Origin: an uncultured Methanosarcinaceae archaeon
Lineage (GTDB): Archaea > Halobacteriota > Methanosarcinia > Methanosarcinales > Methanosarcinaceae
Direction of reading: 5' to 3'
Length of the DNA stretch: 64,000 nucleotides
Assembly (NCBI GenBank): GCA_963727895.1
Contig: CAVSHT010000009.1
Coordinates: 256,001-320,000, forward strand
Numbering within the stretch: the first letter of the stretch is position 1; every line of letters begins with the position of its first letter. The translations under genes were made by a program, and so were the position numbers. A model generated the notes under the pieces. It searched no databases. It worked only from the letters and a program-made list of their open reading frames with translations, and was not told where the DNA came from. Below, piece by piece: positions 22,293 through 24,787 of this stretch.

Positions 22293-22566
22293 GGCATTGG
22301 TAAACAAAAATAGTTATATACTATTAGAAAGTATATTTCTTCATGAACTGCCCAAAATGTAATAGTTCTAATCACAAAAATAATGGTATAGTTGGCGGGC
22401 GTCAACGCTACAAATGCCATGATTGTGGATATAACTATACAGTAGAGCTAAAATCAACTGCTTTTTCCGCTTCTGTAAAAAGACAGGCTTTACAACTCTA
22501 TCTTGAAGGATTGGGCTTTCGCTCAATAGGACGATTTTAGCATGAAAGTACATGAGGAGATTATCC

Positions 22567-23831
22567 TCACGTGCTCTCTTGATCCTTTTTCCCCATAATC
22601 GCAAATATTTCACTAATTATTTTAATCCGTTCATCAACCGAAAAAATCTCAGTCTCAATAATCTTTCTCTTTTGGATTTCTCCCTTTTGATATCCGGTTT
22701 CATCTTCGTCCATCTCATCGTTTGTAATAAGATGCCATAGTATCGTTGCAATTTTCCTTGCTAAGGCAATAATTGCTTTTGCATGTCCAATCGACTTCTT
22801 TTTTCTGTTAAAAAACTCTTTTAACCTGCTATTCTTCTTTCTTGCTGCTGCTTGAGCAATCTGTGTCAGAATCCACCTTGCTACTTTTGATCCCCTCTTT
22901 GTGATTCTGCCGTTATAGTATTTATCTGCAGATTGATACACATTAGGAACTAGACCAAGCCAAGAAGCAAGCTTATTTCCAGAAGAAAAATCCTTAAAGT
23001 TGCCTATTTCAGCAAGTAAAATTGCCGCACCAAGTTCCCCTATACTTGGAACTGACATTAAAATCTCCATTTCTCGCTTATGATTTCGAGAAGCATAATT
23101 GAAAATTTCTGTTTCTAAAGCTTCGAGTTCATCATCAAGACTTTTTATGAGTTTCAGACAGATCTGAAGTCTGAATGCAGCACTTTGAGAAATTTCTCGA
23201 TCAAGAATTTCTCTTATCTGAGCAGCTTTTTTCCGAACATTTGGAGAGAGGCTTGCAATAATCTGATCAACACTCTTACCTGAAGAGATTCCTAATAAGA
23301 TCATTCTGCCATTCTTGCCAAAAACGTCTGTCAGCACATTATTCAGGTGTAGCATTTCAGATGCAAGAATTGAATTTCAGATGCAAGAATTGAGTGAGCT
23401 TTATTTTTTAAATCTGTTCTTTTTTGTACAAGTGTTAACCGAAGTCGAACATATGATCTAAAATCTATATGATCCTTTGGAAAAACTCTTGATGGCTGAA
23501 TCATATTATTAAGTGCAAGTTGTGCAATGACTTCTGAGTCAATCTTATATGTTTTTGTATGGGTAAATACCTTCATATCTCGCGCATTTCCAACTATCAC
23601 AGTTAGATGCTTTACCAATGAATCATGAATCGGAACCCGAAAGTAGCTGGTTGATTCATATGCAACAACATCACATTTTTCTGATATTACCCAATTTTTA
23701 AGGGCTAAAATTCCTTCATCATCTCTGTTGAAACGTTGCTGTTGTTTTTCACCAGATCTACTGAAAATTGTAGCAATGAAAAAGAGTTTGTGAATGTCTA
23801 AACCACAAGCTTTGTTTATGACTTAAATCAA
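22567..23831 (-). pseudogene. IS110 DEDD recombinase/transposase
   Basis: ACGLDIHK, VAYESTS, KT(Y)KIDS, GLVPNVYQSA, ALARK; TAA at codon 3 and 20-bp duplication (23354-23393) causing a frameshift. Confidence 0.9.
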
Positions 23832-23850
23832 ATTAGATCACCAAATTTAT

Positions 23851-23984
23851 TTGGGCAGTGGAATTGCCTAAAAGGCCAATTTAGCATCCGTGATCAAAGT
23901 CACACTTGAGCCTTCGATGGCAATTCACTGATTAGTTTTAGAACGGTTTTGAATAACCAAAATCAAGACAACCTTACTGCCCAA
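23851..23984 (-). ncRNA. Candidate IS110 bridge RNA core
   Basis: 9-bp and 8-bp closing stems; two loops with segments matching the target and donor junctions. Confidence 0.6.
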
Positions 23985-24787
23985 GGTAATGAGGGCTTAA
24001 TAGTCCAAAAAAAGAACGGAGAGTACTTTCATTAGTTGTGCTTGTTATTCGAAGAAAAGCATGTGCGTTTTAGGGGTAAGTCATGTTTCTGTCCAAAAAT
24101 GGATAAAGAAATTTGGTCAGGAGTTAGAGAACCTAAAAAGTGAAAGTGAGATATCTATTGTTGAAATGGATGAAATGCACACTTACATCGGTAACAAAAA
24201 AAATATTGCTGGATCTAGATTGCTGTTGATAGAGTTGGGAAAAAGTTCATCAACTGCTCTTTTGGCAGCAGAGGAACGGAAACTGGAAAACTGCTCTGGG
24301 AAAAAGTGAAGAAAAAAGAGATTGGAGAAGTGATGACAGATCACTGGAGAGCATATGCAGAGTTTCGTCCAGAAAAGATCCATACTCAATCAAAAGCAGA
24401 AACGTATACTGTTGAAGGATATAACAGCATATTGAGGCACTTTTTGGCAAGGTTGAGAAGAAATACAAAGTGTTATACGAAAAGTATTGAAATGCTAAAG
24501 TACTCGGTTATTCTATTGATGAAATACAAAAATAAAGAGTTAATTATGTTTAGTTAACAATACCGATAATTATTCAGAATAGTAAGAAAGATCCCGAAGG
24601 TGCTGTATCTACTGTATCCCCCAATACAGTCTCTTCGAAATATTATGCTTCCCCAAACATACTAATTCGAAGAAGGATCAGCGACCTCCAAGAGATTCTT
24701 TTATTTCGGTGGTATCCCGTGATACCCTACTTTACTTATTTCCCAACTCCAGCATATACTAAAAACGTAAATTATTTTAAAATAATT

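Follow-up and report, generated by a model that had tools for sequence, protein, structure and literature searches.

The window, by which we mean the whole stretch of 64,000 nucleotides analyzed here, derives from an uncultured Methanosarcinaceae archaeon and contains an IS110-family insertion sequence at positions 22539 to 24067, with its transposase gene and its candidate guide RNA both in the minus-strand sense. The element measures 1529 bp without its core and is nested in an IS1-like host element on the plus strand (22293–24571, approximate ends taken from BLAST extents) that is about 740 bp long when the IS110 is left out. Each half of the host (22293–22538 and 24071–24571) gave about 250 BLAST hits in the genome to which the window belongs (G000, an assembly of 3.67 Mb in 19 contigs that is 84% complete), and 195 uninterrupted sites were found there, bearing out an initial annotation of the window that had placed the target in an abundant IS1. 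The same annotation had described an insertion without extra bases whose excision restores 740 bp; the uninterrupted copies are indeed contiguous exactly at the insertion point, and one of them (G000:C9:6000-6739) measures 740 bp. An empty site is also seen in Logan contigs from RNA libraries of related organisms, which join position 22535 to 24068.

The genome carries 21 full-length copies of the element that are 93–100% identical and share the same start and end bases. On the plus strand the left junction of the window copy is ACGA-TTTT-AGCATG (22531–22544) and the right junction is CATGTGCG-TTTT-AGGGG (24060–24076); read in the transposase sense, the junctions are ...ACTTACCCCTAAAA|CGCACATG... 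and ...TTTCATGCT|AAAATCGTCC.... The core is 3 nt long, AAA on the minus strand and TTT on the plus strand, and is located at 24068–24070 at the left (upstream) junction and at 22536–22538 at the right (downstream) junction. Both assignments are based on the guides, in that AAA is the invariant 3' end of all three covarying guides described below, and on the empty-site variants, as the occupied sites reduce to abundant variants only with a 3-nt core (three A in common). The commonest among the 195 uninterrupted sites are CCCCTAAAACTCTT (114) and CCCCTAAAAATCGT (41). With a 3-nt core demanded by these variants, the target ACGAT-TTT-TAGGGG and the circle junction CATGTGCG-TTT-AGCAT of the initial annotation were right. 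The target site exists in several variants in this genome, which are distinguished by how long their A-run is and by the bases that come next. IS1 sequence flanks 9 of the 21 copies on both sides, another 9 on one side and the remaining 3 on neither, and these mixed flanks suggest recombination between copies together with genome rearrangement.

The transposase gene of the window copy (22567–23831, minus strand) is broken. It begins with a TTG at 23829–23831, meets a TAA at codon 3 (23823–23825) and contains a 20-bp tandem duplication at 23354–23393, and to judge from this reading frame the transposase is dead and the copy defective. An intact copy elsewhere in the genome (G000:C4:394534-393026) has a full 390-aa ORF with the Pfam domains PF01548 DEDD_Tnp_IS110 (E 2.5e-17) and PF02371 Transposase_20 (E 3.6e-26). 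This is the only full-length ORF among the 21 copies, and at a position of its DKID motif where all 7 other aligned relatives have D it has Y; from the DxxD pattern, this D would correspond to a catalytic Asp of IS621. With 20 of 21 reading frames broken and the conserved D replaced in the remaining one, activity in this genome is doubtful. The frameshifting 20-bp duplication is common to 17 of the 21 copies, indicating that the defective form has multiplied, presumably through mobilization in trans or through gene conversion. A long hairpin at the 3' end of the gene (22545–22577, AGAGCACGUGAGGA...UCCUCAUGUACUUU) takes in part of the right-end inverted repeat, which is formed by GTACTTTCATG (22541–22551, minus strand) and its partner ATGAAAGTAC in the left end (24023–24032), located 36 nt inside that end. 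The two partners covary in distant relatives (GTTTTTCATG/CATGAAAAAC). A palindrome also occupies left-end positions 6–28 (24041–24063; left-end position 1 is window position 24068), and its symmetry is kept with other bases in Methanospirillum elements (CATGAGGC-TCC-GCCTCATG). Do the right-end repeat and the left-end palindrome have a role in the recognition of the ends?

About 237 nt separate the left end of the element from the TTG start, compared with about 30 nt after the stop codon, and the candidate bridge RNA core of 134 nt (23851–23984, minus strand) is located in this longer non-coding region, 85–218 nt into the left end. Folded on its own, the 134-nt segment reaches −40.9 kcal/mol (z = −3.40; 1 of 200 shuffles was as good) and adopts exactly the architecture that the initial annotation had drawn. 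The outermost helix, P1, consists of 9 bp between 23976–23984 and 23851–23859 (UUGGGCAGU/ACUGCCCAA), and is followed in the minimum free energy fold by P2, which closes loop 1 with its hairpin H1, and then by P3 and P4, which together close loop 2 with its hairpin H2. In P2 the 5' strand GGUUG (23969–23973) pairs with UAAUC (23930–23934), and H1 has the sequence GGUU-AUUCAA-AACC (23945–23958). P3 is an 8-bp helix between GAAUUGCC (23919–23926) and GGCAAUUC (23861–23868), P4 joins 23910–23914 to 23872–23876, and H2 reads UGUGA-CUUUGA-UCACG (23889–23904), all on the minus strand. This favorable folding is confined to the core, since the whole 258-nt left end did not fold better than its shuffles (z = −1.64).

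The structure was assessed in 56 non-redundant relatives (less than 97% identical; 57 were kept, and L149 was left out for its badly aligned 3' part). The named helices are paired in 92.3% of alignment cells, as against 28.5–47.3% when the partners are slid, a control that favors the named structure because the structure was derived from the same sequences. Individually, P2 is paired in 98.6% of cells, P3 in 91.4%, P4 in 91.8% and H2 in 98.9%. Across the six helices 15 of 36 pairs show compensatory changes on both sides, including seven of nine in P1, three of four in H1 and a U-A to C-G change in five rows of H2, and the covariation score was reached by none of 500 shuffles. The 9-bp and 8-bp stems of the initial annotation (23851–23859/23976–23984 and 23861–23868/23919–23926) are present, in the fold and supported by covariation. 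Run alone, RNAalifold missed P3 and P4 and chose a local GCC/GGC hairpin; the named structure was tested separately. Two pairs are G-U in 54 of the 56 rows and two more in 22 and 12 rows, with P2 accounting for one of the former and for the pair with 22, and these conserved G-U pairs identify the transposase strand as the functional one.

No Rfam 15 family matched: of four weak hits the best reached 18.3 bits, where the threshold is 71.8, and was a chance-level match of RAGATH-31 to the hairpin at the 3' end of the transposase gene (22545–22577). A covariance model of the 134-nt RNA itself found 21 places in its own genome and, in a sample of 151 genomes from the order, matched 23, one of which is G000; matches occurred in 9 of 12 other genomes of the same genus and in 7 of 23 genera. 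Logan contigs from RNA libraries of relatives, at 85–95% likeness, cover the region, one of them with 143 nt at 23837–23977, though such contigs cannot show strand, ends or transcription. A T-tract (left-end positions 57–62) and ACTATTAA (65–72) are conserved 15–30 nt before P1; considered as an archaeal promoter, neither is conserved in the Methanospirillum group.

The relatives used for these and the following comparisons come from two scans. Genome contigs, scanned with the intact protein as query, yielded 54 loci; apart from a few on contigs with bacterial bin labels, these belong to Methanosarcina species, Methanoculleus, Methanoperedens and Methanospirillum purgamenti (5 copies). A metagenome scan with an alignment of 8 proteins added the best 80 of 233 loci. 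The contigs with bacterial labels (L057, L058, L064 and L036, from MAGs of Deltaproteobacteria, Cloacimonadota or Oricola) are most likely mis-binned short contigs. With nhmmer, 131 loci gave a left end and 106 a right end. When the 118 unique left ends were aligned they proved highly conserved except for entropy peaks at positions 3–6, 102–107, 127–130, 160–164 and 185–186, and the peaks at 102–107, 127–130 and 185–186 are exactly the segments that the initial annotation had designated as guides.

Two of these segments form the strands of loop 1. The 5' strand, of general form NNNNNN-UUU, holds the guide CUUGAUUUU (23959–23967, minus strand), which is complementary to the core and the downstream flank AAA-ATCG and is hereafter the right-target guide, whereas the 3' strand, which ends NNNN-AAA-AC, holds the left-target guide UCUAAAA followed by C (23935–23942), in the same sense as the upstream flank CCTA-AAA. 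Most copies in the window copy's own family read CUCGAUUUU and CCUAAAAC at these places, while the window copy and three or four others carry a C-to-U change at one position in each target guide; both changes keep G-U pairing with the same target.

Covariation between loop-1 guides and insertion sites across homologs, a check the initial annotation had named, was found for both strands. In 94 unique pairs with 35 distinct guides, the left-target guide is identical to the upstream junction at frequencies of 0.64, 0.95, 0.94 and 0.94 over its four variable positions, falling to 0.05–0.29 further 5', and the class-level score of 3.88 compares with 1.87 ± 0.17 for permuted pairs (0 of 10,000 permutations as good). 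The reverse complement of the right-target guide, in 56 triples with 23 distinct guides, agrees with the downstream flank at 0.86, 0.91, 0.79 and 0.68 for the first four bases after AAA, at about 0.5 for the fifth and sixth, and at 0.27, 0.09 and 0.54 for the seventh to ninth. The score of 4.37 for this guide (permuted, 2.88 ± 0.19; 0 of 5,000 as good) is the best of three offsets, a choice that was given to the permutations too; at a fixed offset it is 2.99 against 1.90, again with 0 of 5,000. Both segments proposed as target guides, UUGAUUUU (23966–23959) on the 5' side of loop 1 and GUUCUAAAA (23944–23936) on the 3' side, are present and lie on strands that follow the downstream and the upstream flank, respectively. 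The misfits are L030 and L066, which agree poorly with their upstream flanks, and L112 and L040, which agree poorly with their downstream flanks. The guides are also short and rich in A and T.

A complete genome of the same genus that belongs to none of these sets (G140) harbors two subfamilies with different guides and different target motifs. Subfamily 1 (10 copies; guides GAUAAAAC and rc-AAAATAAGTA) has the upstream flank ATAAAA in eight copies and GTAAAA in two, with AAATAAG-like downstream flanks, and subfamily 2 (6 copies; guide UAGAAAAAC) has the upstream flank GAAAAA in five of six.

Loop 2 contains the third guide on its 3' side, AUGCUAAA (23880–23887, minus strand), which has the same sense as the right end of the element plus core, CATGCT-AAA. 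This donor guide takes the form AUG-NN-AAA, and its two variable bases equal the two right-end bases before AAA in 53 of 56 triples, so that its proposed role as the guide for the right side of the donor stands. The types found at the variable bases are CT, CC, CA, TC and TT, and ATGGAAAA, ATAGAAAA and ATAGGAAG occur in guide and right end alike at the Methanospirillum, L058 and Methanoperedens loci. The three exceptions are L040, L112 and L020, with the guide disagreeing with the right end of the same locus in L040 and L112; at these three loci the two ends may come from different elements.

The opposite side of loop 2 behaves differently. The initial annotation had read a fourth guide here, CAAGUGUG (23908–23901), and its 6/8 match to CATGTGCG is literally present, but it shows no covariation, and a role of this 5' side (UCAAGUGUG, 23901–23909, minus strand) as a programmable guide is unsupported. 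Left-end positions 3–6 vary (GCAC, GAAC, GTAC, ACAC, CCAC, GGAC and others) while the RNA segment opposite stays CAA[A/G/C]UGUG, the 3' half of which is one strand of H2 with compensatory changes of its own. Neither mutual information over 89 unique left ends nor a table of combinations disclosed any position of the left-end RNA that tracks positions 3–6; the top mutual-information values fall on target-guide positions and position 50, which we read as shared ancestry. Two other registers were considered and rejected. Against the expected AUG-UGCG-UUU, the register AUG-UGAC-UUU gives 8/11 by eye with an invariant RNA and a varying DNA, and a match between the H2 loop and CTATG in Methanospirillum-like loci is inconsistent. 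From these alignments, no programmable guide seems to read the left end. That guide matches exceed chance accordingly holds at the level of the family for three guides and fails for the fourth.

Taken together, the fold, its strand, the covariation of three guides with DNA, the length of the core and the precise insertion, all observed here, indicate that 23851–23984 on the minus strand very probably encodes the bridge RNA of a Methanosarcina IS110-family insertion sequence. An archaeal bridge RNA is what the initial annotation had proposed, and the Pfam domains, the covarying structure and the guides that covary with the targets and the donor end agree with it; apart from the fourth guide, which fails, this apparently genuine bridge RNA gene had been read nearly correctly. 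We infer that the RNA is made and binds the recombinase and that the chemistry is that of IS621. In the mechanism envisaged, the 9-bp stem closes an RNA made up of two internal-loop modules, and a small hairpin sits in the middle of each. Loop 1 would read the target, its 5' strand NNNNNN-UUU pairing with the transposase-sense top strand over the core and the right flank, and loop 2 would read the donor. The excised circle (CATGCT-AAA-CGCAC) and its target (CCCCTA-AAA-ATCG) have the 3-nt AAA core in common, and it is there that the DEDD/serine recombinase would exchange their strands.

The resemblance to IS621 is extensive. As in IS621, the RNA is placed in a long left non-coding end upstream of a DEDD and Transposase_20 recombinase, has two internal loops each split by a stem-loop, and pairs one strand of a loop with the bottom strand to the left of the core and its partner with the top strand to the right, both including the core; the element inserts precisely and adds no bases. 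In the left-target guide AAA is followed by C (or AC), which equals the invariant first base or bases of the element, so that, as in IS621, a base beside the target guide matches the donor, which resembles a handshake with both sides invariant. In the IS621 reports (Durrant et al. 2024, PMC11208160; Hiraizumi et al. 2024, PMC11208158), the modules are ordered stem, LTG, stem-loop, RTG, and within a loop it is the 5' strand that pairs with the bottom strand on the left and the 3' strand that pairs with the top strand on the right, an order with which the RNA and target printed in the supplement agree. The archaeal RNA departs from this scheme in that the guide order is reversed in both loops, while each guide is oriented as in IS621, the core being at the 3' end. 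The initial annotation had called the order flipped, and it is indeed swapped relative to both IS621 and ISEc21 in both loops. The reversed order equals the IS621 geometry with the DNA turned by 180 degrees, which implies that, with respect to recombination polarity, the genes for the RNA and the transposase face the other way. Further differences are that one 9-bp stem here encloses both loop modules, that the core is AAA (3 nt) rather than CT, that, of the four guides which the IS621 model expects, the one for the donor's left end was not detected, and that the host is an archaeon whose RNA matched no Rfam 15 family.

The swapped guide order itself is already described for IS1111-type seekRNAs. 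In the text of Siddiquee et al. (2024, PMC11187229), the IS1111-family seekRNAs place the complement of the top strand first and ISEc21 has the reverse, and IS1111 elements have their non-coding region downstream of tnp, save for a few, ISMtsp17 among them, in which it is found upstream. This raises the alternative that the RNA is an IS1111-type seekRNA or bridge RNA from an IS1111-like lineage whose non-coding region was relocated to the upstream side of the transposase gene; such a system would work by the same kind of mechanism but would bear another family label and follow other rules for recognizing its ends. We consider this a reasonable reading that somewhat more speaks against than for. 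The order of the guides is that of ISEc11, ISPa11 and ISKpn4 and the reverse of ISEc21 in that report (PMC11187229), the complement of the top strand lying 5' of the bottom-strand match as in ISEc11, ISPa11, ISKpn4 and ISPst6. The element also has short inverted repeats near its ends, at unequal distances from them, that may correspond to those of IS1111 elements: CATGAAA begins 7 nt from the left end (core counted) and TTTCATG stops 2 nt from the right end, where the IS1111 repeats, 7–17 bp long, are given as lying 7 (or 6) and 3 bp from the ends, and IS1111 relatives with an upstream non-coding region, for example ISMtsp17, are on record there. In the window copy this subterminal repeat is degenerate (CATGCTTTT); the family form is CATGAAA(tT) at left-end positions 6–14, facing (Ac)TTTCATG, and the better repeat, of 10–11 bp, is the one 36 nt inside the left end. 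The layout itself argues the other way, since a long non-coding region upstream of the gene is of the IS110 type, and is shared with ISEc21 of the IS110 family, whose guide RNA comes from the non-coding region upstream of tnp, whereas that of the IS1111 elements lies downstream. In tblastn searches against plasmids, too coarse for placement in a family, IS4321-family transposases matched residues 251–320 only, a short C-terminal stretch (18% of the query, E 8e-5), while proteins labelled generically as IS110 family aligned over 85–93% with 27–33% identity. Unlike this element, ISEc21 has the bottom-strand match before the top-strand complement.

With or without that family label, the elements place the RNA gene as IS110-type elements do and order their guides as IS1111-type elements do. 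A further possibility, less likely than not, is that they represent a third layout of RNA-guided DEDD recombination, characterized by an upstream RNA, IS1111 polarity, a 3-nt A-tract core and three programmable guides, in which the left end of the donor would be recognized without base-pair reading, through the invariant AC/CATG motifs, the left-end palindrome or protein. Were this so, less reprogramming would be needed on the donor side, and the source would be a mesophilic archaeon. The mechanism has been known since 2024 and the layout is a variant of it.

A quite different explanation of the conserved structure is that it forms a 5' leader controlling translation or stability of the transposase, the matches to the flanks being by-products of a preference set by the protein. 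The RNA does lie directly upstream of the gene, and a hairpin CCAAA-UAAA-UUUGG (23829–23856) overlaps the 3' strand of P1 and the Shine-Dalgarno-like GGUGAU, which is located 7–8 nt before the TTG start; in relatives this hairpin after P1 carries compensatory changes (CCAU/AUGG). Base-for-base tracking of the flanks, as seen in 35 and 23 distinct guide classes, would not be expected of a leader, nor would a copy of the element's own right end, nor the situation in G140, where two subfamilies that differ in their loops occur together and insert at different sites; this explanation is highly improbable. Under the preferred reading of a bridge RNA, the hairpin might link RNA folding with transposase translation. 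Least credible of all is a functional RNA from the opposite (plus) strand, in which the conserved G-U pairs (54 of 56 rows at two, 22 and 12 at two more) would become C-A mismatches and every guide would have the core at its 5' end, unlike any system described in the sources consulted.

The tree table of Durrant et al. (PMC11208160) contains 27 archaeal rows, including a Euryarchaeota protein cluster of ISMac14, ISMba7, ISMba20 and ISMma5, which are Methanosarcina IS110 recombinases whose RuvC and Tnp domains are, by eye, clearly related to those of the present family. The text and the searchable parts of the supplement of that report assign no bridge RNA to these four elements, and the six bridge RNAs it displays are bacterial (PMC11208160). 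The 662 archaeal IS110 recombinases in the accessible text of a preprint by Vaysset et al. (2024) are treated at the protein level only, and seekRNA elements are reported in the text of Siddiquee et al. to be abundant in bacteria and archaea (PMC11187229). In the searchable text of the literature covered, we found no description of an archaeal bridge RNA with this layout.

The family provides a well-documented archaeal case of bridge-RNA-guided transposition, with 35 left-target and 23 right-target classes of natural reprogramming. It indicates that guide order and the position of the RNA gene can be uncoupled, and suggests that one of the donor ends has no variable guide reading it. It also bears on the proposal, made in the preprint of Vaysset et al. 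(2024) as far as its text was available, that the archaeal Nop5/C-D-box RNPs descend from IS110-like systems. The system is compact, with a 134-nt RNA and a recombinase of 390–414 aa, and could be tried as a tool for programmable insertion in Methanosarcina genetics. Within the present genome, homing into an IS1-like element of some 200–250 copies explains the landscape of nested insertion sequences and some of the rearrangements.

A last observation concerns three loci (L109, L113 and L149) in which the left end of the element comes immediately after the right end and core of another family member. The left-target guide of these loci, UGCUAAAC, which is also found among the guides of L030 and L032, equals that neighboring right end, and the elements at the three loci seem to home beside relatives or to build head-to-tail arrays.
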